Shown in pieces: positions 495 through 59,253 of a stretch of DNA of 64,000 bases (positions are counted from its first letter, which is position 1; each line of letters starts with the position of its first letter). Source of the DNA: an uncultured Gammaproteobacteria bacterium (GTDB lineage Bacteria; Patescibacteriota; Patescibacteriia; UBA1558; S5-K13); the NCBI GenBank assembly GCA_964424195.1, contig CAYRHT010000003.1, forward strand, positions 112,396 to 176,395, read 5' to 3'. A program made the position numbers and the translations under genes. The notes beneath the pieces were generated by a model that saw only the letters and a list, made by a program, of their open reading frames with translations, made no database searches and was not told the origin of the DNA.

Positions 495-587
495 ACCTTT
501 ATTTTATATGAATAAGGAATAAGAGACAAGGAGGTTGATTTTTAACCTGTTTTATTGTATTCTATGGATATAATTTAATTTAAGATT

Positions 588-2144
588 ATGCGCATTTTAA
601 TTACAGGTGGTGCTGGTTTTGTTGGTGCCAATTTAACTAAATATTTACTAGATCAAGGACAAGAAGTTGTGGTGGTTGATAATTTTACTAGTGGTAAAAA
701 AGAAAATATCAAAGAGTTTTTTAATAATCCAAAATTCAAGTTGATTGTTCATGATATTCGAGAACCTTTGAAACTTAATGGTATTGATCAAATCTATCAC
801 TTAGCTTCTTTAGCTTCCCCAGATCATTATCTTTTTGATCCGGTAGCAACTTTAGAAACTAATATTTTAGGAACTAAAAATATTTTAGACTTAGCTTTGA
901 GTAATAAGGCTAAGATTTTATTTACTTCAACTTCAGAAGTTTATGGAGATCCTCAAGTTCATCCTCAAAGAGAAGATTATTTTGGTAATGTAAATCCAAT
1001 TGGTAGAAGATCTTGTTATGATGAAGGGAAACGAGCTGCAGAAACTCTATTCATGGACTATCATCGAGAGCATAAAGTTGATATTAGGATAGTAAGACTT
1101 TTTAATGTTTATGGTCCTAAGATGTCTATGAATGACGGACGAGTTATTTCCAACTTTGTTTTTCAGACTTTGAATAATGAACAGATAACAATTTACGGAG
1201 ATGGTTCACATACTAGAAGTTTTATGTATATTGATGATCTTTTACCGGCTTTGACAAAAATTATGGAACAATCAGAGGATATTGGGCCAATTAATCTAGG
1301 TAATCCAGAGGAAAAAACAATTTTAGAGTTAGCTGAGAGTGTGCGAGAAATTATGAATTCTAAGCGAGATTTTCATTTTATTGAAAAAGAACTTCATGCT
1401 GGTCGAATGGATGATCCTAAACTTAGATGTCCTGATATTAATAGGGCTCAATCTTTAATTGAATGGAATCCAGGAATTAGTTTAAAGAATGGATTAGAAA
1501 AGACTATTGAATACTTTAAAGAAGAGAATGAAAAGAAGAATAAGGTATTAATATTTACTACATCTTTCTATCCTTTAGAAGGTCCAGCAGAAAAGATGAC
1601 TCGGAAGATAATTAATAGATTAGGTTTTTGGGATTTTGATGTTATTACAGCTAAGTTAGATTCTAGTTTGAAGAGTGAAGAAAATATTAATAATGTTAAT
1701 GTTTATCGTTTAGGTAAAGGATCTAAGTTGGATAAATATCTTTTACCATTTTTAGCTTTGTCTAAAGCTAAAAAACTTTACAAAGAAAATGATTATAAGA
1801 TTATTTGGTCAGTAATGGCTACTTATGCATCTTTTGCTGGTCTATTATTCTCATTGTTTGTAAAAAAGTTACCATTTTTAATTACTATGGATAAAAATGA
1901 AAAATCAAAAAGAGTCCAATCTAAAATTGAATGGATTTATCCTATTTACAGATTATTATTTAAAAAATCACATACGGTAATAACTTTTGATCAAGAATTG
2001 AAGGATAAATTAGATATGATTTACTATGATAGTAAGATAGTTAATATTCCTTTTAATGAAGAAAGTTCGAAGTGGGATATTGTTGCTAAAAAAGTAAAAG
2101 AAGCTTTACAAAGACTAGAAATACTTGGTACTAGATTAAAATAA
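588..2144 (+). CDS. UDP-glucuronate decarboxylase (UDP-xylose synthase, SDR family) fused to a C-terminal GT-B N-terminal-half-like domain
   Basis: N-terminal ~315 aa match the UXS pattern: GGAGFVG NAD site, STSEVYGDP, YDEGKR, NVYGP, NLGNPEE. The C-terminal ~200 aa (from ~nt 1530) is paralogous to the N-terminal half of the next GT: KVLIFTTSFYPLEGPAEKM versus KILIFSTNYFPHVGGAEMA. Confidence 0.85.
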   Translation: MRILITGGAGFVGANLTKYLLDQGQEVVVVDNFTSGKKENIKEFFNNPKFKLIVHDIREPLKLNGIDQIYHLASLASPDHYLFDPVATLETNILGTKNILDLALSNKAKILFTSTSEVYGDPQVHPQREDYFGNVNPIGRRSCYDEGKRAAETLFMDYHREHKVDIRIVRLFNVYGPKMSMNDGRVISNFVFQTLNNEQITIYGDGSHTRSFMYIDDLLPALTKIMEQSEDIGPINLGNPEEKTILELAESVREIMNSKRDFHFIEKELHAGRMDDPKLRCPDINRAQSLIEWNPGISLKNGLEKTIEYFKEENEKKNKVLIFTTSFYPLEGPAEKMTRKIINRLGFWDFDVITAKLDSSLKSEENINNVNVYRLGKGSKLDKYLLPFLALSKAKKLYKENDYKIIWSVMATYASFAGLLFSLFVKKLPFLITMDKNEKSKRVQSKIEWIYPIYRLLFKKSHTVITFDQELKDKLDMIYYDSKIVNIPFNEESSKWDIVAKKVKEALQRLEILGTRLK

Positions 2145-2150
2145 TATACT

Positions 2151-3284
2151 ATGAAAAAGATATTAATATTTTCTACTAATTATTTTCCTCATGTTGGTGG
2201 AGCTGAAATGGCGATCCGAGAAATCTGTAAGCGCTTACCTGAAAATGAGTATCATTTGGTGACAACTAAATTTGAAAAAGGTATTTCTAATTATGAAAAG
2301 ATAGAAAATATTCATGTCCATCGAGTAGGCTTTGGTTATAAAATAGATAAGTATCTATTTTTTATTTTAGCTCAATTTAAAGCTCATTCTTTAGATATAA
2401 AACATAGTTTTGACTTTTGTTGGGGGATGATGGCTTCTTATGCTGGATTAAGTGCTTGGATTTTTAAAAAGTTTCATCAGAATGTTAAATATCTTTTAAC
2501 TCTCCAATCTGGAGATAGTGATCAGTTTATAACTAAAAGAACTTGGTGGTGGAAAGGAATCTACAGAAAGATATATCAAGATCCAGACTATATTCAAGCT
2601 ATTTCTAATTTTTTAATAGATCGAGCTAAAAGATATGGATATCAGGGTGAAAATATTGAATTAGTTCCGAATGGAGTAGATATTCAGAATTTTACTAAGA
2701 AGTTAAGTGAAGAAGAAATAAAGACTAAGAAAGAAGAACTAGGAATTAAAGAGGGAGATAAGATTATTATTTCATTATCTAGATTAGCGATGAAGAATGC
2801 CATGAATGACTTAATTGATTCTTTACAATATCTACCCGAGAATTATAAGCTTATAATTTGTGGGACTGGACCTTTAGAAAATAAGTTAAAACTACAAGTA
2901 ATGGTTTCTAAACTAGAAAACAGAGTTAAATTTATTGGCTTAGTGGACTATAAAGAATTATATAAATATTTGAATATAGCTGATGTGTTTTGTCGACCTT
3001 CCTTGTCGGAAGGATTAGGTAATGTATTTTTAGAAGCTATGGCTGCTCAAGTGCCAGTTGTTGCGACTAAAGTTGGCGGAATACCAGACTTTTTAGAAGA
3101 TCAAGAAACTGGTTTGTTTTGTGAAGTTAAAAATCATCAGAGTATTGCTGAAAAAATCAGATTGTTAATAGAAGATAATGAATTAAGGAATAGAGTTGTC
3201 CAGAATGGATATCAGATGGTAATAGAGAGTTATAGTTGGAAGAGTATTTCTAAAAAAATGAATAATATATTTAATAAGTTATGA
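2151..3284 (+). CDS. Glycosyltransferase family 4 (GT-B)
   Basis: N-terminal HVGGAE motif and C-terminal EGLGNVFLEAMAAQVPVVATKVGG (E-X7-E region). Confidence 0.85.
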   Translation: MKKILIFSTNYFPHVGGAEMAIREICKRLPENEYHLVTTKFEKGISNYEKIENIHVHRVGFGYKIDKYLFFILAQFKAHSLDIKHSFDFCWGMMASYAGLSAWIFKKFHQNVKYLLTLQSGDSDQFITKRTWWWKGIYRKIYQDPDYIQAISNFLIDRAKRYGYQGENIELVPNGVDIQNFTKKLSEEEIKTKKEELGIKEGDKIIISLSRLAMKNAMNDLIDSLQYLPENYKLIICGTGPLENKLKLQVMVSKLENRVKFIGLVDYKELYKYLNIADVFCRPSLSEGLGNVFLEAMAAQVPVVATKVGGIPDFLEDQETGLFCEVKNHQSIAEKIRLLIEDNELRNRVVQNGYQMVIESYSWKSISKKMNNIFNKL

Positions 3285-4396
3285 AAATATTGATTACAAC
3301 TGGAATTTATCCACCAGAATCTGGAGGACCAGCTACTTATGTTAAGAATTTAGCTCGAGTTTTAGTTGAGCAAGGACATCAAGTGGGTGTAATTACTTAT
3401 TCCGATCAATCTAGCTATAATGGTGATGATTCTTTAAATTATAAATTAATTAGAATTAAAAAAGGGAATAAAATTCTAAATTATATTAAGTTTTTCAAAG
3501 TAGTAAATAAAAATGTTAAAAACTTTGATTTAGTTTATTGTTTCGATCATTTTAGCGCCGGTATTCCTTCTGTTTTAGCTTGTAAATTAAATAAAAAGAA
3601 AATAGCTATTCGAGTCGGTGGTGACTTTATTTGGGAGCGTTATGTAGAGAAAACAGGAGAAGAAATAAGTTTAAAAGAATATTATTCTAAGAAAAAAAAT
3701 AATAATGACTGGAGATTTAAAGTAATTAATTTTATTTTTAAATTAACTGATTTGTTAATTTTTAGTACTGATTTTCAAAAAGATATCTTTGAAGAGCATT
3801 ATGCATTAAATTATAAAAAGATTAAGATTATTCCGAATCCAATTATTGTTGAAAAAGAGACAGAGAATTCTCTAAATAGAAATAGAGAAATAGTGTGGGC
3901 TGGAAGAATGCTAAAATTAAAAAATTTATTTAATCTAGTTTTAGTCTTCTCAGAAATTAAAAATAATAATTTTAAATTAGTTCTTTTTGGTGAGGGAAAT
4001 ATTAAAAAAGACTTAGAAGTTTTTATTAAGAAAAATAATTTTCAAAATATAGAAATTAATGACAAGATCTCCCAAAAAAGTCTTAACGAAAAGATAAAAT
4101 CTTGTCATGCTTTTGTTTTACCTAGTCATACAGACATTAGTCCTAATATTATTTTAAATTGTATTAGATATAAAACTCCATTTTTAATGACTAAGGAAAA
4201 TGGATTTAGTTTCCTAGAAGATAAAGCTCTTTTTTTTGATCCCAAAGACAATTCTCAATTAAAAGATTGTCTCGAAAAAGTAATGGATTCTAATTTTTAT
4301 GAACAATATAAAGATAGAGTTTTAGAGATAAATTATAATCACACTCTTAATGAGATTACAGAAGGCACTTTAAAATTATTTGAAACTTTAGTATGA
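3281..4396 (+). CDS. Glycosyltransferase, GT-B fold
   Basis: N-terminal GIYPPESGGPATYVKNLA motif. ATGA overlap with the upstream gene. Confidence 0.7.
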   Translation: MKILITTGIYPPESGGPATYVKNLARVLVEQGHQVGVITYSDQSSYNGDDSLNYKLIRIKKGNKILNYIKFFKVVNKNVKNFDLVYCFDHFSAGIPSVLACKLNKKKIAIRVGGDFIWERYVEKTGEEISLKEYYSKKKNNNDWRFKVINFIFKLTDLLIFSTDFQKDIFEEHYALNYKKIKIIPNPIIVEKETENSLNRNREIVWAGRMLKLKNLFNLVLVFSEIKNNNFKLVLFGEGNIKKDLEVFIKKNNFQNIEINDKISQKSLNEKIKSCHAFVLPSHTDISPNIILNCIRYKTPFLMTKENGFSFLEDKALFFDPKDNSQLKDCLEKVMDSNFYEQYKDRVLEINYNHTLNEITEGTLKLFETLV

Positions 4397-5439
4397 AAAT
4401 TCTAAGCCTAGGAATGGATAAAAATTTAGTTAATAAAAGTTCACAAGTTAGTGAGAGAGTTTTAGAATATGCTAATTTAGTTGATAAATACACAATAATA
4501 AGTTTGGCAGATCAAGATGGTTCTTTAAATTTAAGTCAAAACGCAGAAGTTTTTTTAATTAATCAAAAGAATAAGATACTGGCTCTTTGGAAAATGAAAA
4601 AGAAAATTAAAAAAGTTTTGAAAAGTGATAATTATGATTTAATAACGGTGCAAGATATTTATTTCATAGCTTATTTAGCGATTAGAATGGCTAGTAGATT
4701 TAAAATTGATACAGAGATTCAAGTCCATGGATTTGAAAAGTTTAAAGGCTTCAGAAAGAGACTTGTTAAATATGTTTTAAAAAGAGCAAATTCAATTAGA
4801 GTTGTTAGTGAAAGATTAAAAAAACAATTAATTCAAAATTTTAAAGTTTTAGAAGACAAAATTACAGTAGTGCCAGTTTATGTAAAAACTGAAATTAAAG
4901 AGAAAGAATTGAAATCTAAAGAAAATGATAAATTTATTTTCTTAACAGTAGGGAGATTGGTTCCAGTTAAAAATATAGAAATACAAATCAAAGCTATTGA
5001 TAAATTAAAAAATAAATACGAAAATATTGAATTATGGATCGTGGGTGATGGTTTAAAGAAGTATGAATTAAGAGATAATATTAAGTTTTTTGGATATCAA
5101 GAAGATTTGAGTAAATTCTATCAGCAGGCCGATTGTTTTCTGCTTACTTCTAGTTATGAAGGCTGGGGAATCGTTATTATTGAGGCAGCGAGTTATGGAT
5201 TACCAATTATTATGACTGATGTTGGTTGTGCTGGTGAATTTATTAAAGATGGTCAGAATGGAAGTGTCGTCGCAATACAAGATCAAGAAGCATTAGAAAG
5301 CAAAATGATTGAATTGATTGAAAATGAAGGTTTAAGAGCTAAATTAGGAAATAACGCTAAAGAGTCAGTAAAAAGTTTATTAAGTAAAGAAGAAACTTTA
5401 AATTTATATAAACAATCATGGGAGAAAGCAATAAAATAA
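4393..5439 (+). CDS. Glycosyltransferase family 4
   Basis: C-terminal EGWGIVIIEAASYGLPIIMTDVGCAGEFI motif. Confidence 0.85.
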   Translation: MKILSLGMDKNLVNKSSQVSERVLEYANLVDKYTIISLADQDGSLNLSQNAEVFLINQKNKILALWKMKKKIKKVLKSDNYDLITVQDIYFIAYLAIRMASRFKIDTEIQVHGFEKFKGFRKRLVKYVLKRANSIRVVSERLKKQLIQNFKVLEDKITVVPVYVKTEIKEKELKSKENDKFIFLTVGRLVPVKNIEIQIKAIDKLKNKYENIELWIVGDGLKKYELRDNIKFFGYQEDLSKFYQQADCFLLTSSYEGWGIVIIEAASYGLPIIMTDVGCAGEFIKDGQNGSVVAIQDQEALESKMIELIENEGLRAKLGNNAKESVKSLLSKEETLNLYKQSWEKAIK

Positions 5440-6467
5440 AATTACTTATTTGTACTCAAAAAGTAAACATGAACGATTCTGTTCTTGGTTTTTTTCATGA
5501 ATGGATTAAAAAAATCGCAAAACATTGTGATCAGTTAACTGTTATTTGTTTAGAAAAAGGAGATTATGAGCTACCAGAAAATGTAAATGTTTTGTCTTTA
5601 GATAAAGAAAAGAAAGTTGGTAAATTTAAGTATATTTTGAAATTTTACAAATATCTTTGGAGATATCGTAAAGATTATAATGCTGTTTTTGTGCATATGA
5701 ATAAAGAATATGTGTTCTTAGGCGGTATTATTTGGCGAATTACGAAGAAAAGAGTTGCTTTTTGGTATAATCATGTTTATGGAGATTTAATGGCCTCTAT
5801 AAGTGGATTATTGGCTAATAGTATTTGTTATACTTCTGGATTTTCTTTTTTTAGAAAATGGAAAAAGTCTATTAAGATGCCAGTAGGAATTAATACTGAT
5901 TTATTTAATATTGATAGTTCGGTAATTAAAAAAGAAAATTCTCTTTTATTTTTAGGAAGGGTATCAAAAGTGAAAAATATTCATATTTTGATTGAGGTTT
6001 TGAAAAATATAAATAAAAAAGGTATTAATTTTCATTTAGATATTGTTGGAGGGAAGAAAGATGGAGAAGAAGAATATTTTACTGGAGTAAAAAAGCAGGC
6101 AGAATCTTTAGTTGAAAATGGAAAAATTTCATTTCTAGGAGAAATTCCTAATCATAAATTGAGTCAAATTTATAATGAAAATCAAATTTTTATTAATTTA
6201 ACTAATTCTGGATCTCTTGATAAAACAATATTTGAAGCTATGGCTTCTGGTAATTTAATTTTAGTTAGTAATAAAAATTTAGAAGAGCATATTTCAAAAA
6301 ATTTATTATTTAAAGAAGATAATCAGGAAGATTTAGAAAATAAAATTATTCATCTTTTAAATCTTTCAGAGCTTGAAAAAGATGAGATGCGTAAAGATTT
6401 GAGAAAAGTGGTAGTAGAAAGACATGGTCTAGATGAGTTAGTAGATAAATTAATAAAATTATTATGA
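5418..6467 (+). CDS. Glycosyltransferase, GT-B fold (divergent)
   Basis: FEAMASGNLILVSN motif. Sits within the glycosyltransferase operon. Confidence 0.6.
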   Translation: MGESNKIKLLICTQKVNMNDSVLGFFHEWIKKIAKHCDQLTVICLEKGDYELPENVNVLSLDKEKKVGKFKYILKFYKYLWRYRKDYNAVFVHMNKEYVFLGGIIWRITKKRVAFWYNHVYGDLMASISGLLANSICYTSGFSFFRKWKKSIKMPVGINTDLFNIDSSVIKKENSLLFLGRVSKVKNIHILIEVLKNINKKGINFHLDIVGGKKDGEEEYFTGVKKQAESLVENGKISFLGEIPNHKLSQIYNENQIFINLTNSGSLDKTIFEAMASGNLILVSNKNLEEHISKNLLFKEDNQEDLENKIIHLLNLSELEKDEMRKDLRKVVVERHGLDELVDKLIKLL

Positions 6468-7336
6468 ATCAGACTTCTTGTAAAATATGTGCCTCAGTAA
6501 CTGAATTTAATTTCAAAAAAGATAATTTTGATTTTTATAAGTGTAAAAATTGTAATTTAACCTTTGTTCATCCACAGCCTCAGAATTTAGATGTTTTTTA
6601 TGGTAAGTCTTATTATAAATCAGATGTTTTAGATAAGGATTTTTTTGGTTATGCTGACTATGAAAAAGATAAGGAACCAATGAAATCAAATTTTATTGGT
6701 ATATTAGAGTATATGAAAGCTAAAGTTCCTGCTCAGAGTGTTTTCGATGTTGGAGCGGCAACAGGATATTTCTTAGACATTGCTAAATCAAAAAATTGGG
6801 CAACTTATGGGTCAGAAATATCTAATTATTCTTATGGTTTAGCTAAAGCTAAAGGACATAGAATAGTTTTAGGAGAGTTAGATAAATATGAAGATAATTT
6901 GCAATTTGGAATGGTTACTATGTGGGATGTTTTAGAACACTTGAAGGATCCTAGTTTATATATAAAGAATGTGAATAAGATTTTGAAAGATGATGGATGG
7001 GTACTTATTAATACTATCAATGCTGATAGTTTATGGGCTAAATTATGGGGAAAAAATTGGAATATGATTATCCCTCCGGAACATTTATTCTATTTTTCCA
7101 AAGAGAATATAAGTAGGCTTCTAGAAGATAATGGATTTCAAGTTGTTGAATATAAAAAGATATTTAAAAAGTTTTCTTTATCATATATTTTTAAAGTTTT
7201 ATATAATTGGCGAAAGATAAGGGTGTTTAAAAAATTATCTATTATTTTTGATAATAGTTTTTGGAGAAAACTTAAAATTCCAATATATTTAGGAGATAAC
7301 ATTTTTGTTCTAGCTAAAAAAGTAAAGAATATTTAA
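6464..7336 (+). CDS. Class I SAM-dependent methyltransferase with N-terminal CxxC...CxxC zinc ribbon
   Basis: N-terminal CKIC...CKNC ribbon, then the methyltransferase motif I VFDVGAATGYFLD. Confidence 0.7.
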   Translation: MNQTSCKICASVTEFNFKKDNFDFYKCKNCNLTFVHPQPQNLDVFYGKSYYKSDVLDKDFFGYADYEKDKEPMKSNFIGILEYMKAKVPAQSVFDVGAATGYFLDIAKSKNWATYGSEISNYSYGLAKAKGHRIVLGELDKYEDNLQFGMVTMWDVLEHLKDPSLYIKNVNKILKDDGWVLINTINADSLWAKLWGKNWNMIIPPEHLFYFSKENISRLLEDNGFQVVEYKKIFKKFSLSYIFKVLYNWRKIRVFKKLSIIFDNSFWRKLKIPIYLGDNIFVLAKKVKNI

Positions 7337-7337
7337 T

Positions 7338-9023
7338 ATGCTTAAAAAACATTATTTAGCAATTTTATTATCTATTGTTATAGCTTTATTAACTTTTTGT
7401 CCTCAATTTTTATCTATTAATTCAATGGAGGATTCTTGGCAAGGAGTTTATCCAATAAATACTGCAGATGACATTTATTATTTAGCTAGAGCACAGGATT
7501 CCCTTGATGGACATATATTTTTATCTAATCCCTATTTATATGAACATAAAGATAGTAGTCCAATGCAATTTTGGTTAGCAGATTATTTCCTGGCTATGCC
7601 AGCTAATTTCTTTAATATTAATGTGGCTGAAGTTTATGCTTTCTATGATCTTTTTTTAGTAATTATTTTAGTTTTACTAACTTATAGCATTCTTTATAAT
7701 CTGAGTAAGAATAAATTATTATCTTTATCTAGTACTACTTTTTTACACCTAGCTTTATTTTTAGATAGATTTGGTAGATCTCCTAGTCCACAATTTAATT
7801 TTATTTTTTGGCTCTTATTAACTTTATTTTTAATTAAATACATAAAGACAAATAAAAAGATTTATATTATTCTTTCGGGATTGTCTTTTGGTTTGCTTTT
7901 CCATCTTTATACTTATTACTGGACATTTTGGTTGTGTTTATTGGGAATTTTATTTTTAGTTAATATTTTCTTGAAAGAAAAGAAAATTAAGGAATATTTT
8001 TATGTTATTTTAATTGGAATACTTATTGGTATTCCTTATTTTATAACGATGTTTCAGAGTCTTAAATTACCATTTTATAATGAATCAATATATAGATTAG
8101 GAATGATTGATACTCATTTTCCTTCTGGATTTAAAATAGTTTCCTCAGCAATTCTGATTTTATTTATTTATTTTGTTCTATGGAAAAAGAAAGTAGTAAA
8201 AAATGATGCATTAACTAGACTTTTATTAATAGGAACTGTATCAACTGTAATTTGCGTTAATCAGCACCTAATAACTGGTAAAAATTTAGAATTTTCCAGT
8301 CATTATTTAGTATTAAGTGTTTTTTGGTTTATATTCTTTTTTACTTATTTATTTAATAAGATATTGCAGAATAAAAAAGATCCTAAAAGAATAGTGACTA
8401 TTCTTTTTATATTAATTTTATCTTTTTCTTTTTTAAATATCAAAAATAAATTTTTATCAGATATTAAAGCTAAGAATTATGAAATAAATTGGCAAAGATA
8501 TGTAAAAATTTTAAATTGGTTAAATGATAATACAAATTTAGATTCTATAGTTTATGCTGATAGTGAAATGAGCAATTTAATTCCAGTTTATACGCATAAT
8601 AATATTTATTATAATAGATTTGCTAATTTATTTTTTATTTCAAACAAGGAATGTCAAGAAAGATTCATCATTAATAATTATTGGGACGAATTTACTGATG
8701 AATATATATTAGATTATCAGAGGTATATTTGGGGGGTTCATTATATTGATGAATATGGGCATAATCAAAGTAAAAATAAAATTAAAAAGATTTTAGGTTT
8801 GGAAATCAATGAAAATGAAATAATTCCAAGAGTTAAAAAGAAAAGCTTTAAAAAATTAAGCGATGAGATTAAAAGTAAGAGTATAGAAGAAAGTCTATTT
8901 AGTTATAAGGTAGATTATTTAATTTGGGACAAAACAAAAAATCCTCATTGGCTTATTGAGGATTTGAAATTTTTAGAAAAGGTTTTTGAATTTAATGATA
9001 TTATAGTGTATAAGATTATTTAA
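7338..9023 (+). CDS. Polytopic membrane protein, possible GT-C-type glycosyltransferase or polymerase
   Basis: About 12 predicted TM helices. Located in the glycan operon. The specific family is not resolved from sequence. Confidence 0.5.
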   Translation: MLKKHYLAILLSIVIALLTFCPQFLSINSMEDSWQGVYPINTADDIYYLARAQDSLDGHIFLSNPYLYEHKDSSPMQFWLADYFLAMPANFFNINVAEVYAFYDLFLVIILVLLTYSILYNLSKNKLLSLSSTTFLHLALFLDRFGRSPSPQFNFIFWLLLTLFLIKYIKTNKKIYIILSGLSFGLLFHLYTYYWTFWLCLLGILFLVNIFLKEKKIKEYFYVILIGILIGIPYFITMFQSLKLPFYNESIYRLGMIDTHFPSGFKIVSSAILILFIYFVLWKKKVVKNDALTRLLLIGTVSTVICVNQHLITGKNLEFSSHYLVLSVFWFIFFFTYLFNKILQNKKDPKRIVTILFILILSFSFLNIKNKFLSDIKAKNYEINWQRYVKILNWLNDNTNLDSIVYADSEMSNLIPVYTHNNIYYNRFANLFFISNKECQERFIINNYWDEFTDEYILDYQRYIWGVHYIDEYGHNQSKNKIKKILGLEINENEIIPRVKKKSFKKLSDEIKSKSIEESLFSYKVDYLIWDKTKNPHWLIEDLKFLEKVFEFNDIIVYKII

Positions 9024-9855
9024 TTATATAATTTTTACCAATTTTAGCGATTAATTTTTCTATATAATTAGTTGATTTCAAAATTTCTTCAAGAAGATGT
9101 AGTGTTAAAAATATTCCATAAATTACTACAATCCAGGAAGTCAAAGGATAACTCTGAGGATTGTTAAGGAATATTTTTTCTATTATTAAACTGAAAAATA
9201 TAATCCACATAGCCATAAAGAACTGTCTTAATTGAAATCTTATGGCTAATATTTTTCTGATAAAACTTTTATTTAATATTTTTTTATTAACAATGGACTC
9301 TTCGGATAATTCATTGTTTTTTATTCCCCACATATCTGAATTTTTGAGATAATATTTACAACATAGGTGAAATGGTAATTGTCCGTTTGCTTTAAGCATG
9401 CTCCAAGCTAATCCACCAAAAATTCCAGTTAATAAAACTAATTCTGAATTTAAAGAAGATACTTTAGAAATATTATAAGTCAAGGCAAATAAGAATAAAG
9501 ATGGACCTGCTAAATGATAAATACCATCTACATATAGTCCCTTTAAGGAAAAAAGATTATTATATCTGGCGATATCTCCATCTACACCATCTAAGATTAA
9601 ACAAAGCCATAAAAGTAATAAGGCAACTATTTTCAACCAAAAGTCAGAAAAAAAGAGAAGTATAGAAGCGAGAAAGCTTAAAATTACAAAAAAATAAGTA
9701 ATTTGATTAGGAGTTACTTTTATATTATGTTTGAGAATGAAATGGCTTAGATAAAGAGCAGGATTTTGATTAAATCGTCTATGTCCCCACATATATTTCA
9801 TTCGTTCTCTCTTGTTTCCGTGAAGTTTTTCTCCTAATTTTTTAATAGTTTCCAT
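9016..9855 (-). CDS. CDP-alcohol phosphatidyltransferase family membrane protein
   Basis: Signature DGVDGDIARYNNLFSLKGLYVDGIYHLAG, i.e. D-G-x2-A-R...G-x3-D-x3-D. Multiple TM helices. Confidence 0.7.
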   Translation of the reverse strand: METIKKLGEKLHGNKRERMKYMWGHRRFNQNPALYLSHFILKHNIKVTPNQITYFFVILSFLASILLFFSDFWLKIVALLLLWLCLILDGVDGDIARYNNLFSLKGLYVDGIYHLAGPSLFLFALTYNISKVSSLNSELVLLTGIFGGLAWSMLKANGQLPFHLCCKYYLKNSDMWGIKNNELSEESIVNKKILNKSFIRKILAIRFQLRQFFMAMWIIFFSLIIEKIFLNNPQSYPLTSWIVVIYGIFLTLHLLEEILKSTNYIEKLIAKIGKNYIIK

Positions 9856-9856
9856 A

Positions 9857-10360
9857 TTATATTTCTTTATCGATTATTGTTCTAATTTTTGTTGATGAAG
9901 TAGTCTTAGTGTAGGGAAAATAAATCACTTCTACATTTACTTTTTTTAACTTTCTTTCATATTCGTTCCAGCTTGGAGTATCTTTCCAACAATCTGCTAC
10001 AAATAAAACATCAAATTCTATTTTTTCCCATGCTTTATATTTATCTATTTCATCTTGAGAAACAACCTCATCCACACATTTAATATTTTCAACTATTTCC
10101 ATTCTTTCTTTATGAGGTATGAAGGCTTTTTTATTTTTATAACTCACTAATTCATCATTAGTTACGCCTACTATTAGTTTATCACACATTGATTTAGCAT
10201 TGCGTAAGATATTTAAGTGTCCAATATGAAACAAATCAAATACGCCAGCAGTATAACCAACTATTATTTTTTTGTCTCTTATCTTTTGAGAAATATTTTT
10301 CTTTTTCATATTTTTATAATTTATAATAGTAATTTTATAGTATCTAAAAGCTTTTTGCAA
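9857..10360 (-). CDS. Glycerol-3-phosphate cytidylyltransferase-like (TagD family). Start may be the internal ATG at 10311.
   Basis: GYTAGVFDLFHIGHLNIL HxGH nucleotidyltransferase motif. The 12-29 aa N-terminal extension relative to TagD leaves the start uncertain. Confidence 0.8.
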   Translation of the reverse strand: MQKAFRYYKITIINYKNMKKKNISQKIRDKKIIVGYTAGVFDLFHIGHLNILRNAKSMCDKLIVGVTNDELVSYKNKKAFIPHKERMEIVENIKCVDEVVSQDEIDKYKAWEKIEFDVLFVADCWKDTPSWNEYERKLKKVNVEVIYFPYTKTTSSTKIRTIIDKEI

Positions 10361-10389
10361 TAAGAAGGATAAGGTATTATAATAGATGT

Positions 10390-11529
10390 ATGGATATTTT
10401 ATATATCACTCAGGCTAGAATTCCTACTGAAAAGGCACATGGAGTTAATATTACTTCTATGTGTAAATTTTTTAATAAAGGAAAAAATAATATTAAATTG
10501 ATCATTCCTAGGGTTAAAAATAAAATAAAAGAAGATACTTTTCAATATTATGATATAAAAGATCATTTTGAAATTGTTAGATTACCAGCTATATCTATCT
10601 TTAAACTAGAGAAAATATTAGGAAAGTTAACTTTTTTTACCCAATTATTAAGCTTTTATATTTCAGTATTATTTTATTTACTCTTACAAAAAAGAAGTGA
10701 TAAAGTTCTTTATACTAGAGATTATTTACCATCTTTTATATCTTTATTGGGTTATAAAGTTGTTTATGAATGTCATAGTATTCCCAGGAAAAGAAAGATG
10801 TTTTTTTTAATAACTAAATTATTTAGTAAAGTAATAGTTATTTCTAAGGGATTAAAAGAAGATTTTCTAGAACAAGGTTTTAAGGATAATAAGATATTGA
10901 TAGCGGCAGACGCAGTTAATTTAAATATTTTTATCAAAAGTATTACTAGAGAGGAAGCTAGAAAAAAATTGAACCTTCCTGAAAATAAAGATATTATTTG
11001 TTATTGTGGTAAGTTTAAAACAATGGGAATGGATAAAGGAATTAAAGACATATTGTTATCTCTTACTTTTTTAGAAAAAGAAGTTTTATTTTTAGCAGTT
11101 GGTGGTGATCAAAAAGATATAAACTTTTACCAAAAAATGGCGGATGATTTAAAAGTTAGTAAGTTAGTCAAATTTATCGGACATATTAAACAGAATGAAT
11201 TAGCTGTTTACCAAAAAGCCGCTGATATATTATTAATGCCTTTTCCTAATATAGAACATTATAGTAAGTTTATGTCTCCTATTAAGATGTTTGAGTATAT
11301 GGCTAGTAAAAGACCAATTATTGCTTCTAATCTACCAACTATTAAAGAAGTATTAAATAATGACAATTGCTTATTCTGTGAACCAGATAATCCTCGGGAT
11401 TTAGCAATTAAAATTGAAGAATTGTTGAATAATAAGGAAAGGGGTGATAAATTATCTCAAGTAGCATTTAAAGATGTTCAGAGATATACTTGGGAAAATA
11501 GAGTAAAGATGATTTTAAAATTTATATGA
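10390..11529 (+). CDS. Glycosyltransferase family 4
   Basis: GT-B C-terminal region with FEYMASKRPIIASNLP. Confidence 0.8.
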   Translation: MDILYITQARIPTEKAHGVNITSMCKFFNKGKNNIKLIIPRVKNKIKEDTFQYYDIKDHFEIVRLPAISIFKLEKILGKLTFFTQLLSFYISVLFYLLLQKRSDKVLYTRDYLPSFISLLGYKVVYECHSIPRKRKMFFLITKLFSKVIVISKGLKEDFLEQGFKDNKILIAADAVNLNIFIKSITREEARKKLNLPENKDIICYCGKFKTMGMDKGIKDILLSLTFLEKEVLFLAVGGDQKDINFYQKMADDLKVSKLVKFIGHIKQNELAVYQKAADILLMPFPNIEHYSKFMSPIKMFEYMASKRPIIASNLPTIKEVLNNDNCLFCEPDNPRDLAIKIEELLNNKERGDKLSQVAFKDVQRYTWENRVKMILKFI

Positions 11530-12434
11530 AATATGGTTTTCCTAAAAAATTAGTAGAAGCATTAATTTGTAATTGTGGTGGTGATTTGGAAAGTATTAAT
11601 TCCGTCGAGTCTGATGATAATTCTATTTATTCAGGTTGTTTAGAATGTTCAGACTGTAAAAAGAAATATAAAATTGAAGAAGGAGTAATTAATTTTTTAG
11701 ATAAACAAAATGAGCTTGGAAGAGTAATGCAAGACGAGATAAAAGCTAGAGACAAAGAATCTCCTGTTTATGACAAACGTTTGGCAGCTAGATATTTTAA
11801 AGAAATTCCTTCTACTATAAATAAATTAGGGGAAATTAAAGATAAAAATATAATTGAATATGCTTGTGGTACTGGTAGAATAACAACTGAAATAATGAAG
11901 GATTGTAAATTTTTATTAGCTAGCGACTTTTCCCTTCAATCTCTTATTGTATTATCAAAAAAATTAGGTAATATAACTAACGTTGGTTTAGTATTGGGTG
12001 ATTCTGTTCAATTTAAAACTAAAGCGAACTTTTTTGATATAGCTTTGTCTACTCAATTTTTAGAACATATTCCTGAAAAAGAGCAAAGAGAAGAATTCTT
12101 TAGAAATATTTATAATACTTTAAAAAATAAGGGCAGATTAGTTTTAACTGCTTATCATCAAGATTTTCGAAGGATAGTTAGGAAGATGCCTAAGGAAGGA
12201 ATGCATAAGACAAAAATATTCTTTCATTATTTTTCTTCTAAGGAGTTAAGAGATGAATTAAATAAATTGTTTAAAGTGATAGATTTGCATCCTATAGATA
12301 TAACTTTACCACTAGAGTTTAGATTAAAATTACCAGCTAAATTTTCAGGATTAATATCTCGGTTATTTGAGAGAATACCTTTAATTAATAAATTAGGGCA
12401 TTTACTTATTGTCGATGCCAAAAAAGATGAATAA
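11526..12434 (+). CDS. Trm112-like zinc-ribbon fused to a class I SAM-dependent methyltransferase
   Basis: N-terminal CNCGG...CLECSDC ribbon. Motif I EYACGTGRIT. Confidence 0.7.
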   Translation: MKYGFPKKLVEALICNCGGDLESINSVESDDNSIYSGCLECSDCKKKYKIEEGVINFLDKQNELGRVMQDEIKARDKESPVYDKRLAARYFKEIPSTINKLGEIKDKNIIEYACGTGRITTEIMKDCKFLLASDFSLQSLIVLSKKLGNITNVGLVLGDSVQFKTKANFFDIALSTQFLEHIPEKEQREEFFRNIYNTLKNKGRLVLTAYHQDFRRIVRKMPKEGMHKTKIFFHYFSSKELRDELNKLFKVIDLHPIDITLPLEFRLKLPAKFSGLISRLFERIPLINKLGHLLIVDAKKDE

Positions 12435-13146
12435 TAAGAAACACTATTCAAAAGGATTTATACTTCCATTTTTTCTGAAAAAAGATTGGTTTTGGTTTAC
12501 TGATCCTAAGGATGTGAAAAATTCAGCTATGGTTAACTTTTTTTCTTATAAAGATTTTAATATTACAGGATTTAAGAAAAAAGAGGGGCTGACTACAGTG
12601 ATAGATTTAGAACAATCTTTGGATGACATTTGGTTAAAATTTAGAAAAAAATTTATTGCTAAACAAATAAAAAGAGGTGAGCGTAATAGTGTAATTATTA
12701 AACTAAGTAAAGATTATAATGATTTTAAAAAAATTTATAAAAAGTTTAGGGAAGAAAATAATCTGGGTAAGGAAAAGTTAGATCTTTTATTTAAAAATAC
12801 ATTTTTTATAGCTGCTTATTATCAAAATAAAATGGTTGCTGGTGGTATTTTTGTTAATGATGAGGAAAATATGAGAGCTTTAGTTTTAGCTTCTTTAAGA
12901 GGAGATGGTAATAGAGAGATAATTGGTCAAGCTAATCGTATGTTAATTTGGGAAATTATAAAGTATGCTAAAAACAGGGGTATTAAACTATTTGATTTGG
13001 GAGGAATTGCAGTTAATTCTGAATACAGGCATCAGGTAACTCTAGCTGAATTTAAGGAAGCTTTTGGGGGTTATCGAAAAAAATGTTATTACTATTATAA
13101 AGTATACTCACCTTTATTAAGATTTTGGATAAAAATAAGAAAATGA
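12409..13146 (+). CDS. FemAB-like / GNAT-fold acyltransferase-like protein (tentative)
   Basis: Weak resemblance to FemAB-family C-terminal regions. Within the glycan operon. Overlaps its neighbours by 26 and 22 nt. Confidence 0.35.
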   Translation: MSMPKKMNNKKHYSKGFILPFFLKKDWFWFTDPKDVKNSAMVNFFSYKDFNITGFKKKEGLTTVIDLEQSLDDIWLKFRKKFIAKQIKRGERNSVIIKLSKDYNDFKKIYKKFREENNLGKEKLDLLFKNTFFIAAYYQNKMVAGGIFVNDEENMRALVLASLRGDGNREIIGQANRMLIWEIIKYAKNRGIKLFDLGGIAVNSEYRHQVTLAEFKEAFGGYRKKCYYYYKVYSPLLRFWIKIRK

Positions 13147-14255
13147 AAAATATTTTGTTCTTAACAAATAAATTGCTAATTGGGGGTGCTGAAATGGTTA
13201 TGCTTAGTCAGGCTAATTCTTTAGATGCTGAGAAATATAAAGTATTTTTTGGTCTTCTTTATAATACAAATCAAGAAAATACTTTATATCATAAATTAAA
13301 AACAAAACGTATATTTCATTTTGGTTTTTCTAGGCTTTTTGATATAAAGGGATTTTTTAAGTTTTATAGATTTTTGAAGAAGAATAAAATTGAAATAATA
13401 GTTTCTGCTCTTTTTGAGGCTAATTTAGTAGCTAGAATCTTAGGTAGGTTAGTAGGAGTTAAGATTATAATTAGTTCTGAACAAAGTTGTTATTATAATA
13501 AAAGCTGGTGGCAAAAAAAAGTAGATCTACTTTTGTCTTATGTGACGGATGTTATTATTGGAGTTTCAGAAGAGGTTGTTAAATTTACTTCTCAGCAAGA
13601 AAATATTCCTTTTAAAAAGTTTAGAGTTTTAGATCAAATTAGTGATTTAGATATAAATAATTTATTTTCTAAAGAATATCTATTAAAGAAATTTAATTTA
13701 AAAGAATCTTGTTTTGTTTGTATGAATATTGGCCGTTTCAGTCCAGAAAAAGATCAAAATAGGATAATTGAAATAGCTAACGAAATAGTTAATAAGAAAA
13801 ATATAAAAGATATGTATTTTTTTATTGTTGGTTATGGTGATTTAGAAAAAAATCTTATTGATAGTATTAAAAAGTATAAATTAGAAAAAAATGTTAAAAT
13901 AGTTGTAGATCCTAAAAATGCTAAAGAATATTTAGTATTAGCGGATTTATTTTTACTTACTTCTGATAGAGAAGGTATGCCTATTGTAATTTTAGAAGCA
14001 ATGAATAGCAATTTGCCTTGTATATCTTCAAATGTTGGTGGTGTGAAAGATATAGTCAAAGACGGAGTTAATGGCTATTTAGTTGATAATCGAGAAGTAG
14101 AGGATTTTGTAGATAGGATAATTTATCTATTTAATAATAAAAAAATTGTAAGTAAAATGAAATTGGAAGCTAAAAAAATAGTTGATAATAAAAAGGGTAG
14201 AATAGATCAGTTAGAATTAATTATTGATGAGCAGATTAATAAAAAATATTTATGA
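13125..14255 (+). CDS. Glycosyltransferase family 4
   Basis: GGAEMVM N-terminal motif and EGMPIVILEAMNSNLPCISSNVGG C-terminal motif. Confidence 0.85.
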   Translation: MDKNKKMKNILFLTNKLLIGGAEMVMLSQANSLDAEKYKVFFGLLYNTNQENTLYHKLKTKRIFHFGFSRLFDIKGFFKFYRFLKKNKIEIIVSALFEANLVARILGRLVGVKIIISSEQSCYYNKSWWQKKVDLLLSYVTDVIIGVSEEVVKFTSQQENIPFKKFRVLDQISDLDINNLFSKEYLLKKFNLKESCFVCMNIGRFSPEKDQNRIIEIANEIVNKKNIKDMYFFIVGYGDLEKNLIDSIKKYKLEKNVKIVVDPKNAKEYLVLADLFLLTSDREGMPIVILEAMNSNLPCISSNVGGVKDIVKDGVNGYLVDNREVEDFVDRIIYLFNNKKIVSKMKLEAKKIVDNKKGRIDQLELIIDEQINKKYL

Positions 14256-15190
14256 AATTTATTATTACAGTAGATGTAGAAGCTGATAATCAATGGAAAA
14301 ATAATAATATTGGCTTAGAAAATGTAAAATCTTTGCCACATTTTCAGTTATTGTGTGAGAAGTATGGTTTTAAACCAACATATTTGCTTTCTTATGAGGT
14401 AGTTGAAGGAGCTAATATTGATAATCTAAAAGATTGGGAAAATAGAGGAGTTGCAGAAATAGGTTCTCATTTACATCCTTGGACTACTCCACCATATTCA
14501 AAAAATCATAATATAAATATTCATACTTATCCGCATGAACTTGAAGAAGATAATTTAGTTAACAAGTTAGAGAGTTTAACTAATATAATAAAAGAAAAAT
14601 TTAATAAACAACCTATTTCTTTTCGAGCTGGACGTTGGGGTTTTGATGAGAGAGTTGCTGAGAAAATTAAAAGATTAGGTTATGAAATAGATTGTTCTGT
14701 AACTCCTAAAATTAATTGGCAAAAGACAGTAGGAGATCATAATAAAAATGGTGGATCAGATTTTAGATTTAATTCTATTTACCCACATGATATTCAAGGA
14801 ATATTAGAGGTTCCAATGACTATTTTATTTACAGGATTATTAAAGAAAGAAAATTCTAAAATAGCTCAATTATTTTTAAGATTGCCAGAGAGTTTTTTTA
14901 AGAAAGTTGTTAATAGATTGTTTTTTAAACAGAAATGGTTAAGAATTTTTTCTAATAGTTCTACTAAAGATTGGGAAATGATATATAAATCAGCTCAAGA
15001 AAATAATTTACCAGTTTTAGAATTTATGATACACTCAAGTGAGTTAATGATTGGAGGAAGTCCCTATTCTAAAGATAAAAAATCATTTGATTTTATATAT
15101 AATCAATTAGAAGTAATGTTTAAATATTTTAAGGAAAAAGATATTGAAGGAATAACTTTGAGTGATTTTAGAAAGTATTTTAATAATTAA
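14252..15190 (+). CDS. Polysaccharide deacetylase-like (NodB/CE4-fold) protein (tentative)
   Basis: N-terminal FIITVDVEADN with later conserved His and Asp residues. The family assignment is uncertain. Confidence 0.4.
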   Translation: MKFIITVDVEADNQWKNNNIGLENVKSLPHFQLLCEKYGFKPTYLLSYEVVEGANIDNLKDWENRGVAEIGSHLHPWTTPPYSKNHNINIHTYPHELEEDNLVNKLESLTNIIKEKFNKQPISFRAGRWGFDERVAEKIKRLGYEIDCSVTPKINWQKTVGDHNKNGGSDFRFNSIYPHDIQGILEVPMTILFTGLLKKENSKIAQLFLRLPESFFKKVVNRLFFKQKWLRIFSNSSTKDWEMIYKSAQENNLPVLEFMIHSSELMIGGSPYSKDKKSFDFIYNQLEVMFKYFKEKDIEGITLSDFRKYFNN

Positions 15191-15199
15191 TTTAAAGTC

Positions 15200-15943
15200 A
15201 TGGAAAATTTTAATAAGCATGATGTTAAATGGACAGAAGAAAAAATAAATAATTTTTGGAATTATTTTGTTATGAATCATGGTCTTTTAGAGTTGTCATT
15301 TGCTCGTGAAACTGGAGAGAAAATAATAAAAATAGTGAAAAAATATATTAAAAAAGACGGTAATAATCTTGACTATGGATGTGGAGCTGGGTATCTTATA
15401 AATTTTTTATTTAAACAGAGAATAGCTTGTAGTGGATTAGACGCATCTAGAGAATCTTTAATTGAAGTTGAAAAAAAATTTAAAGATAATAAATTATTTA
15501 AAGGTGTTATTTTAGCGGACAAAATTCCAAATGAAGATATAGGTGATAATACTTATGATTTTATTTTTTCTTTAGAAATGATAGAACACATACTTCCAGA
15601 AAAATTAAACAACACATTGGAGGAGATGTATCGAATATTAAAACCTGGTGGATATATTTTTATTTCTACACCAAGTAATGAGAATTTAAATAAATATAAA
15701 GTAATTTGCCCTGATTGTGCAGCAGTTTTCCATAGAGTGCAACATGTTAGTTCTTTTTCAGAAGGAAAATTATCTAATTTAATGAAAAATATTGGATTTA
15801 ATAAAATAAAATGTGAATCTGTTTTATTAAAAAAACATAGTAGTTTGATTGATGGAATTAAGTGGTTATTAAATTTTTTGAAAAAAAATTTGTTTGGTAA
15901 AAAAGGATTTACTCCTCATTTAATATATTTAGGTAAAAAATAA
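15200..15943 (+). CDS. Class I SAM-dependent methyltransferase
   Basis: Motif I LDYGCGAGYL and motif post-II ILKPGGYIFIS. Confidence 0.75.
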   Translation: MENFNKHDVKWTEEKINNFWNYFVMNHGLLELSFARETGEKIIKIVKKYIKKDGNNLDYGCGAGYLINFLFKQRIACSGLDASRESLIEVEKKFKDNKLFKGVILADKIPNEDIGDNTYDFIFSLEMIEHILPEKLNNTLEEMYRILKPGGYIFISTPSNENLNKYKVICPDCAAVFHRVQHVSSFSEGKLSNLMKNIGFNKIKCESVLLKKHSSLIDGIKWLLNFLKKNLFGKKGFTPHLIYLGKK

Positions 15944-15954
15944 TTAAATAAAAT

Positions 15955-16728
15955 ATGATTTTTAAAGAATTCAAAGAAAAAGCACATGCTCCTAAAAAAT
16001 CTAAAATATTAGGGGATAGATTTTATAGATTAGAGAGAAATATTTCAGTTAGAATTAGTTGGATATTATTGAAAATATTTCCAGAAATAAAACCAAATTT
16101 TATAACTTTTATTTCTTTTTTATTATTATTAATAGTGTTGATAATAACTTTTATTCCCAGATTTCAAGGAATTATTTATATTACTATAATACAATTAATA
16201 CTTTTATATTGCATTACAATAACAGATAAAATTGATGGCGAAATAGCACGGGCTAAAGATTATTTTACTCAAAAAGGTATTTATTATGATTATACAGTTC
16301 ATTTTTTTTATCCTTTTGTTTTTTATTTCGTAATTGCTAATTATTTTTATAAAATTTCAAATAATCAAATTTTATTTTTTTTAATTATTATATTATCAAT
16401 TTTTACAATGGCTTTAATTCTATTGAGATCTACTAAAGCTGTTGTTTGTCAAATTCTTAAAAGCAATAATTCTAATATTAGAGATTTAATATTAGAATCA
16501 GATAAAAAAAAGAAGAGACTAGTTCTGCCTCTGAGAATTTTAAATTATTTAACTTTTATGATATACTCTTGGACTTTATTTTATTATATTGTCCTTATTA
16601 TAATTAGTTTATATAATTGGAATTTAGCTTATATTCTTTGCTATATTCATGTTATTTATTCTTTATTAGTTATTTCTTATAAAGTATTATGGAGCTATCC
16701 AAGAAATAAATTATTTAAAGCTAATTAG
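15955..16728 (+). CDS. CDP-alcohol phosphatidyltransferase-like membrane protein
   Basis: DKIDGEIARAKDYFTQKGIYYDYTVH matches the D-x2-DG-x2-AR...G-x3-D-x3-D pattern, followed by several TM helices. Confidence 0.55.
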   Translation: MIFKEFKEKAHAPKKSKILGDRFYRLERNISVRISWILLKIFPEIKPNFITFISFLLLLIVLIITFIPRFQGIIYITIIQLILLYCITITDKIDGEIARAKDYFTQKGIYYDYTVHFFYPFVFYFVIANYFYKISNNQILFFLIIILSIFTMALILLRSTKAVVCQILKSNNSNIRDLILESDKKKKRLVLPLRILNYLTFMIYSWTLFYYIVLIIISLYNWNLAYILCYIHVIYSLLVISYKVLWSYPRNKLFKAN

Positions 16729-17977: not shown

Positions 17978-17980
17978 TGA

Positions 17981-57922: not shown

Positions 57923-58031
57923 GTCTTTATCTTACTATTAAGATTAAAATTTGTCTATTTTTACTACCAATAAGTCTTTACTTTTCTAAGAAATATGTTA
58001 TAATCAAAAGTCATTAAATAGCATTAAATTA

Positions 58032-59249: not shown

Positions 59250-59253
59250 TTCT

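Follow-up and report, generated by a model that had tools for sequence, protein, structure and literature searches.

The stretch analysed here, referred to as the window, comprises 64,000 nucleotides of contig CAYRHT010000003.1 (assembly GCA_964424195.1, positions 112,396 to 176,395, forward strand) from an uncultured bacterium of the Patescibacteriota. The gene under study is its first open reading frame (ORF) on the plus strand, ORF1 (588..2144, stop at 2142-2144), an intact frame of 518 residues in which a sugar-nucleotide enzyme is fused to half of a glycosyltransferase. Residues 1-315 (588..1532, +) form a UDP-glucuronate decarboxylase or UDP-xylose synthase (UXS), an extended-type short-chain dehydrogenase/reductase (SDR), as assigned from the match to human UXS1 (hUXS1), motifs, Pfam, and the ratio of nonsynonymous to synonymous substitutions (dN/dS). 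Residues 318-486 (1539..2045, +) form a catalytically degenerate version of the N-terminal Rossmann domain, the acceptor and membrane side, of a family 4 glycosyltransferase (GT4), as assigned by BLASTP, hhalign, AlphaFold2, and Foldseek. A C-terminal crossover helix with the conserved end L-E-I-L-x-x-R-L follows at residues 496-517 (2073..2141, +), assigned from DSSP, hhalign, and the topology of PDB entry 6ldq. Residues 318-518 are called the half-GT module in the following. Only 6 nt downstream lies ORF2 (2151..3284, +), a full-length GT4 of 377 residues with Pfam matches to Glyco_transf_4 and Glycos_transf_1 and the paralogue of the module. Its nearest solved relatives are BshA and PimB', and its family is widespread in Patescibacteria.

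ORF1 residues 2-316 match hUXS1 (PDB 4gll) with E=7.3e-106, 358 bits, and ~58% identity, whereas the next SDR classes in the PDB score at most 140 bits; identity to stand-alone bacterial UXS proteins of ~310 residues is 56-60%. Pfam assigns residues 3-306 to Epimerase/GDP_Man_Dehyd. NCBIfam holds no UXS equivalog, and ORF1 falls far below the cutoff of every other NCBIfam model. The STSEVYG and CYDEGKR motifs are identical to those of hUXS1, residue for residue. In an alignment of 65 members of the ORF1 family, S114, S116, E117, Y144, and K148 are invariant and T115 is conserved in at least 90%; within the NAD motif GGAGFVG (residues 7-13), G7, G8, A9, G10, F11, and G13 are invariant. The canonical UXS that the first-pass annotation of this DNA had placed in the first ~315 residues is thus borne out, with its motifs intact. 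As judged by its sequence, this part is an ordinary, active-looking member of the UXS family, predicted to make UDP-xylose. Public annotations name the SDR part of such proteins only—as 'UDP-glucuronate decarboxylase', 'SDR family oxidoreductase', 'GDP-mannose 4,6-dehydratase', or 'hypothetical'. A protein identical to ORF1 occurs on 10 contigs, the longest of 953 kb, under the source name 'UDP-glucuronate decarboxylase'.

The remainder of ORF1 is homologous to the N-terminal half of ORF2, as had been read from the letters at the outset. BLASTP pairs ORF1 residues 319-474 with ORF2 residues 3-158 in a gap-free alignment (30% identity, 55% positives, E=6e-27), and a profile–profile alignment by hhalign pairs the module family with residues 2-158 of the ORF2 family over 157 columns at E=3.3e-56. 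The earlier equation of residues 318-518 with residues 1-160 of the GT4 holds for the N-domain and overlooks the crossover helix of residues 496-517, which the module carries in addition. In a second hhalign alignment, the module tail G-W-D-Y-V-A-K-K-T-K-E-x-F-Q-x-L falls onto the GT4 C-terminal helix, residues 356-377, at E=0.014. The best pairwise local alignment gives the same pairing of tail and ORF2 helix and is not significant alone (shuffle p=0.11); the tail is identified with the GT4 C-terminal helix because of the profile alignment and the fold topology, not because of the pairwise match. Pfam finds only models of the N-terminal half of GT4 enzymes in residues 340-466 (PF13477, a weak match of 31 bits).

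AlphaFold2 modelling of ORF1 on the family alignment yields a mean local confidence (pLDDT) of 87.3 and a predicted template modelling score (pTM) of 0.86. The last UXS helix spans residues 299-314, and a linker of ~3 residues leads from the UXS into the module. Residues 318-486 are predicted as a seven-stranded domain of alternating β-strands and α-helices, followed by one long helix at residues 496-517. The model of the module by itself agrees with that of the full protein, at a pLDDT of 85.9. Searched with Foldseek against the PDB, the module retrieves GT4 N-domains as top matches: MshA at E=1e-8, then the Thermosynechococcus sucrose-phosphate synthase (SPS) TeSPS, glycogen synthase, BshA, PimA, and PglA—with a Foldseek probability of 1.00 for MshA, SPS, BshA, and PimA. 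Entry 6ldq is matched at E=1e-7 with a target-normalised TM of 0.74-0.75 and 14% identity. This structure is the engineered A-domain of TeSPS, residues 27-220 plus the C-terminal helix 406-426; according to its authors, it folds and crystallises by itself and can be superposed on the complete enzyme (PMC7264703). Its topology, an N-domain with a spliced C-terminal helix, is identical to that of the module. However, 6ldq was engineered in the laboratory from an unrelated GT4, whereas the module of the window is a natural, selected version.

The donor-binding half of the enzyme is missing. Glycos_transf_1 has no Pfam match in ORF1, and a hidden Markov model (HMM) of the donor half scores -0.2 bits in the ORF1 frame, i.e., no match. 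Apart from genuine full-length GT4 genes, the HMM finds no donor half in any frame of window positions 1-12000, and a donor-half-only gene is found neither in the window (six-frame search) nor in 20 related loci. The initial description of an acceptor-side Rossmann half lacking its donor half, with no frameshifted GT C-terminal half downstream, therefore stands. Whereas a GT4 enzyme has its active site in the cleft between a pair of Rossmann domains, the module consists of the N-domain and the crossover helix only. By alignment and model, it is a GT-B enzyme minus the donor-binding Rossmann domain (ORF2 residues ~186-352), excised cleanly and with the crossover helix retained.

The residues kept and lost in the N-domain were compared by column between 65 sequences of the half-GT family and 110 of the ORF2-type GT4 family. 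Positions conserved to at least 80% in both families number 23, and at 20 of them the residue is identical: F323, P329, G332, A334, E335, E365, R374, G376, G378, D382, K383, A394, L397, W407, M410, A411, Y413, F421, I457, and Q465. The retained signature R374-L-G-K-G-S-K-L-D382-K383 (1707..1736, +; R-x-G-x-G...D-K) is found in both families, with R374 at 100% and its G, G, D, and K at 91-100% in each. Within the 65-sequence alignment, ~30 positions of the module are conserved to at least 90% and R374 is invariant; the last residues of the protein are among these positions (E505, Q508, L510, E511, I512, L513, R516, and L517). The half-GT and the GT4 N-domain are both strongly basic, at a mean net charge of +11, while the UXS part is neutral (0).

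Two motifs are degenerate. The Gly-rich loop, P-x-x-G-G-A-E in 99-100% of ORF2-type GT4s, is P-x-x-G-P-A-E in half-GTs and P-L-E-G-P-A-E in ORF1 (residues 329-335, 1572..1592, +); G17, at 100% in the GT4 family, is replaced by Pro in 89% of half-GTs. The catalytic loop, L-T-L-Q-x-G-D at 97-100% in ORF2-type GT4s, reads V-S-L-Y-E-G-K in half-GTs, where the Q and D positions are unconserved, and I-T-M-D-K-N-E in ORF1 (residues 432-438, 1881..1901, +). Alignment of ORF2 with BshA places the Gly-rich motif on the P-S-V-G-G-S loop and the catalytic motif on the T-L-H-G-T-D loop. In GT4 structures, the Gly-rich loop touches the donor phosphate. The His of the loop equivalent to the catalytic motif is essential in TeSPS, where H158A is inactive (PMC7264703). 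As read from the column profiles, the differences are concentrated in motifs facing the donor and catalysis, and the remaining family-specific surface (R374, G-x-G...D-K, W..MA.Y) is preserved.

These losses bear on a split glycosyltransferase, one of the arrangements first considered, in which the half-GT and a separately encoded donor half would rebuild an active GT-B enzyme like Alg14/Alg13 or EpsE/EpsF. There are GT-B enzymes split in this manner, whose N-terminal Rossmann half is likewise a separate unit with a membrane-side recruiting role, as in Alg14 (PMC8993221); part of the Gly-rich loop is also kept in the module (P-x-x-G-x-A-E). However, those pairs belong to the MurG-like (GT28/GT1) lineage and assemble into an active enzyme with the crossover helix supplied by the donor half, a helix that holds the Alg13/14 complex together (PMC8993221), whereas the module is of GT4 lineage, carries the helix in cis, and has lost the LTLQxGD loop and the second Gly. 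No donor-half-only ORF accompanies it in the window or any related locus examined, and short 'N-only' database matches are truncated or nonsense-interrupted full GT4s. Moreover, the A and B domains of TeSPS, expressed apart, are inactive on mixing (PMC7264703). Reconstitution from two halves is therefore considered highly improbable.

The same fusion was sought in relatives and is found across Patescibacteria. More than 70 protein clusters (at 90% identity) share the ORF1 architecture, with lengths of 515-531 residues, query coverage of 98-100%, and identities from 91% down to 44%; plain UXS proteins of ~310 residues rank below all of them in the search with ORF1. The hosts are Magasanikbacteria, Komeilibacteria, Wolfebacteria, Parcubacteria, and other Patescibacteria. 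When the window is compared with two relatives, L017 (89% protein identity) and L018 (75%), the dN/dS of the module is 0.10-0.13, that of the UXS part 0.07-0.15, and that of ORF2 0.16. An exhaustive phmmer search with the module over 1.84 billion representatives (E<=1e-3) retrieves only 613 relatives. In a crude neighbour-joining tree, the half-GT lineages fall outside the clade of full-length N-domains; the duplication that separated GT4 and module is taken to be ancient because the module of the window is not sister to ORF2. At bootstrap values of 16-18%, this tree is compatible with one origin or several for the UXS-linked and epimerase-linked half-GTs. The 'orphan' half-domain of the first-pass annotation is thus a misleading term for a widespread conserved family.

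A decaying tandem duplicate of the GT4, or an assembly or frameshift artefact joining two genes, was proposed at the same stage, and the paralogous GT4 directly downstream and the missing half of the enzyme fit such an origin. Yet an intact ORF of ~515-525 residues recurs across classes of the candidate phyla radiation (CPR) in the more than 70 clusters, which are independent and stem from numerous samples and assemblers; the exact protein lies on 10 contigs; the module is under constraint like that of the UXS part; the extreme C-terminus belongs to the most conserved segments; and the duplication is ancient. Because of the cluster spread, the multiple contigs, and the low dN/dS, a sequencing frameshift and a decaying duplicate are excluded, with a probability put close to zero.

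Among the phmmer relatives, 28 'N-only' representatives were considered as stand-alone half-GTs and rejected, as they bear the full-GT4 signature (VGGAE, LQEGD, VPNGVD) and junk tails. The one inspected in its genomic context, an ORF2-type GT4 at L019:4001-5182, is a full GT4 that carries a single in-frame TAA (LGTKKD*KVIITVSRL) and is called as an N-half of 216 residues and a C-half of 167 residues. A nonsense mutation, an error of sequencing, or recent pseudogene formation could explain the TAA; interruptions of this type account for many 'N-only' database entries.

Known UXS enzymes have a single domain, to which those of eukaryotes add a membrane anchor at the N-terminus (hUXS1, PDB 2b69/4gll), and we know of no UXS described with a C-terminal GT-B half-domain. 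Neither a UXS-GT fusion nor GtrA systems of CPR bacteria turned up in full-text literature searches. The fusion is hence a conserved domain architecture with a previously unannotated second module, and it appears to be undescribed.

The gene context was sampled at 16 distinct loci with a UXS-half-GT gene, the window included. At six of them (L001, L006, L007/L012, L008, L009, and L010), the next gene encodes a GtrA-family protein of 119-147 residues, 0-29 nt away or overlapping; these pairs usually lie by phosphoglucose isomerase (PGI) and transketolase genes and not in a glycan cluster. At six others (window, L013, L015, L016, L017, and L018), the next gene encodes the orthologous ORF2-type GT4, with 456-617 bits for the family HMM; L013, L015, and L016 have a GtrA gene or a GtrA-GT4 fusion 2-4 kb beyond this neighbour. 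Proteins of the GtrA type occur together with GTs of the cytoplasmic face and with GT-C enzymes (PMC8035078). Two of the contigs, L009 and L010 (CAZEWH010000012.1 and CAYZIE010000027.1), are titled 'uncultured Gammaproteobacteria bacterium' and carry a CPR-type UXS-half-GT and GtrA with 59-64% identity to the Patescibacteria versions; they are probably mis-binned or mis-labelled.

The best 150 phmmer relatives and related proteins feature a set of recurring architectures: ordinary GT4; GT4-GT4 doubles; UXS- or SDR-half-GT; SDR-full GT4 (P0302, P0145); SDR-half-GT-GT4 (P0254, 876 residues); and GT4-GtrA (P0142, P0148). The triple fusion occurs also in L005 (GCA_049325475.1), where the ORF at 7128-9740 encodes 870 residues with a GalE-like SDR, a half-GT, and a full ORF2-type GT4; the gene caller began this protein at an internal Met (P0146, 579 residues), and the true ORF starts upstream. 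Its split counterpart is found at the same syntenic position in L021 as an SDR-half-GT of 488 residues and a GT4 of 381 residues, overlapping by 8 nt and with 72% and 84% identity to the respective parts of the L005 protein. One conserved position thus occurs in four states: GT4 alone, SDR-half-GT plus GT4 as in the window, triple fusion, and fusion alone. Upstream of it, L002, L005, L017, L020, L021, and the P0167 locus share, although their CPR genomes are divergent, a block of a DUF5667 protein, a protein of ~1,230-1,310 residues without Pfam match, a Wzy_C protein resembling O-antigen ligases and bearing TPR repeats (700-800 residues), and a reverse-strand GT4. L017 is the close relative of the window, and the window starts inside that reverse-strand GT4 (1-~500, minus).

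Two related loci without half-GT, L019 and L020, contain operons of UDP-glucose dehydrogenase (UGDH), SDR, UXS, and ORF2-type GT4, with UGDH two genes upstream of UXS. The stand-alone UXS genes score 478 and 482 bits with the UXS HMM, and their stop overlaps the start of the ORF2-type GT4. In L020, one protein combines this GT4 with GtrA, and a few genes downstream comes a PMT_2-type GT-C. Fusions of GT4 to a GtrA/DPMS-type four-helix membrane domain are found in both orders (L020:7001-8569, which is P0148; P0142; L013:10766-12391; and L016:3775-5433), and such GtrA-anchored GT-B enzymes seem to be equivalents of the GT-A polyprenyl-phosphate glycosyltransferases. The gene network appears to join UDP-glucuronate and UDP-xylose synthesis, the ORF2-type GT4, and GtrA, with the half-GT as an optional connecting module.

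Taken at face value, the six loci that hold just the fusion and GtrA, away from any GT, invite the idea of a composite enzyme, in which the SDR would replace the donor domain and UDP-xylose would be passed straight to a lipid acceptor on the half-GT, with GtrA. The acceptor-side residues are kept, and a PMT_2-type GT-C, which uses a lipid-phosphate sugar, lies near the related L020 operon. Retaining GT-B chemistry also requires no enzymic nucleophile. However, the N-domain motifs that were lost are precisely the donor-contacting ones, and the operons of unfused UXS and full GT4 show that an ordinary route exists. The geometry is also unfavourable: judging from GT-B topology and the 3-residue linker, the UXS on the N-terminus of β1 is expected to be distal to the cleft, and in hUXS1 structures the sugar is buried against NAD+. 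A composite of this kind would be a long shot. Hardly more probable is the wider proposition that the UXS-half-GT plus GtrA unit, which occurs alone in six CPR lineages, works as a lipid-xylose synthase or channelling enzyme complete in itself and that the GT4-GtrA proteins are the first GT-B counterparts of the GT-A polyprenyl-phosphate glycosyltransferases.

A regulatory or sensor role is an unlikely but more serious contender. The acceptor-side pocket would take up either a lipid-linked acceptor or a nucleotide sugar, and in this way adjust UXS activity to demand by allostery, with no protein docking involved. Residues that are family-specific and probably ligand-facing are kept (R374, D382-K383, and P-x-x-G-P-A-E), the short, rigid linker and the pTM suggest a fixed inter-domain geometry that could pass a signal, and an adjacent partner gene is missing at four loci. 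Against this stands the repeated adjacency and covalent fusion to ORF2-type GT4 and GtrA, which a sensor leaves unexplained, and standard GT-B topology, from which the UXS would join the N-terminus of β1 on the side opposite the cleft. We also know of no UXS that is controlled allosterically by a domain added to it.

On balance, the module is probably a non-catalytic adaptor that docks UXS onto membrane-associated GT4/GtrA machinery. It would hold the UXS at a full-length ORF2-type GT4, at a small membrane protein of the GtrA type, or at both. This could come about in two ways. The module may mimic the GT4 N-domain and pair with it as a pseudo-protomer, which would explain the direct fusion ahead of GT4; or it may keep the face of the N-domain that binds GtrA, membrane, and acceptor, which would explain the pairs of fusion and GtrA genes that parallel the GT4-GtrA fusions. 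UXS enzymes are dimers, and the adaptor assembly would be bivalent for this reason. UDP-xylose would thus be made beside the transferase that consumes it, and in the window this partner would be ORF2. A scaffold or a coupling of UDP-xylose production to a transferase had been among the first suggestions; the fused and split orthologues, the GtrA partners, and the UGDH-UXS-GT4 operons favour it, and from them we infer the physical docking, the membrane association, the channelling, and the use of UDP-xylose by ORF2-type GT4s.

Several observations weigh against the docking adaptor. The contacts of the module with proteins and with the membrane are ones that we infer, and the donor specificity of the GT4 is not readable from its sequence. 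The basic helix following D-K-Y is not amphipathic (hydrophobic moment 0.16), so that an expected membrane-binding feature is missing; helix 441-460, with a hydrophobic moment of 0.45 and a charge of +5, is a candidate only. At 4 of the 16 loci (L002, L003/L004, L011, and L014), the fusion is followed by another gene or the contig end and by neither GtrA nor an ORF2-type GT4. Within the 64-kb window, no GtrA homologue was found by tblastn and HMM, and no UGDH by Pfam on candidate ORFs. The fused SDR is not always a UXS, being GalE-like in L005, L021, and P0254, and P0302 is a further such case; the general principle is that of an SDR sugar-nucleotide enzyme with half-GT and GT4 and not xylose specifically.

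Known systems resemble the docking adaptor in part. Tethering by a protein module would be analogous to the transmembrane anchor of eukaryotic UXS. ArnA, like ORF1, joins a UDP-glucuronate-decarboxylating SDR with another module that serves the same glycan-modification pathway. Unlike in ORF1, however, the partner domain is a catalytic formyltransferase at the N-terminus, and the SDR stops at the 4-keto-pentose; ORF1 contains no formyltransferase domain and reaches 99 bits with the ArnA equivalog model at a cutoff of 777. The Arn pathway consists of Ugd, ArnA, ArnC, ArnE/F, and ArnT, and the L020 operon, UGDH-SDR-UXS-GT4/GtrA followed by the PMT_2 GT-C, is built on the same general scheme as Ugd-ArnA-ArnC-flippase-ArnT. 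In classical GtrA systems, a GT-A enzyme (GT2) makes the C55-P-sugar, whereas the associated enzyme here is a GT-B (GT4). For the proposed role of the module as a non-catalytic GT4-like paralogue, the closest functional analogy is offered by two proteins of the accessory Sec system, GtfB and Asp1. Both are inactive GT-B paralogues: GtfB is the substrate-binding partner of GtfA and Asp1 an anionic-lipid-binding targeting factor (bioRxiv 10.1101/219105). Unlike the module, they have retained the two Rossmann folds, and neither is joined to an enzyme of sugar-nucleotide synthesis.

The fusion heads a string of seven tightly packed co-directional ORFs (588-9023) in the AT-rich window (GC 21-33%). 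The rest of the string (3281..9023, +) consists of overlapping or 1-nt-spaced ORFs for three GT4s, a methyltransferase, and a polytopic membrane protein, as assigned by Pfam and NCBIfam. This last protein, of 561 residues (7338-9023, +), has no Pfam match and, in NCBIfam, only a weak one to the LA_3751/LA_3752 family of putative glycosyltransferases; it is possibly a GT-C or a polymerase. A promoter scan gives 60 sites vs 58.5 in shuffled sequence, hence no excess. The remaining glycan-assembly cluster (9016..20291, genes on either strand) features by Pfam CDP-alcohol phosphatidyltransferases, a cytidylyltransferase, GT4s, methyltransferases, a FemAB-like protein, a Wzx-type flippase, a second SDR, and a Bac_transf protein of the initiating phosphoglycosyltransferase type. 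Two genes of the CDP-alcohol phosphatidyltransferase family and the cytidylyltransferase (9016-10360, minus, and 15955-16728, plus), together with three methyltransferases and the FemAB-like protein, suggest phospho-alcohol and methyl decoration of the glycan. The second extended SDR (17981-18937, minus, 318 residues), at 155 bits with the UXS HMM, is not a UXS and lies between the Wzx-type flippase and Bac_transf at the far end of the cluster. A smaller second glycan locus (56579-60354) contains a Wzy_C-type protein (447 residues, minus) and two GT4 genes, and after it, at 60375-60794, lies a secreted-looking coiled-coil protein of 139 residues without family match. At 25860-28349 (+), beside housekeeping genes, this CPR bacterium with its small genome encodes an 829-residue VirD4/TraG-like type IV coupling protein (T4SS-DNA_transf, TraG-D_C, TrwB).

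The analysis defines a system of three parts, UXS-half-GT, ORF2-type GT4, and GtrA, and shows where to delimit a GT-B N-domain that folds stably in isolation. Together, the parts point to a probable pathway for a xylose-containing surface glycan or glycolipid in CPR bacteria. If the docking adaptor is real, ORF1 would contain a natural example of a glycosyltransferase that has shrunk to one Rossmann domain and taken on a docking role. The synthesis of a sugar donor would then be physically coupled to its use at the membrane in CPR/Patescibacteria—organisms that are not culturable alone and whose envelope glycobiology is almost unexplored.

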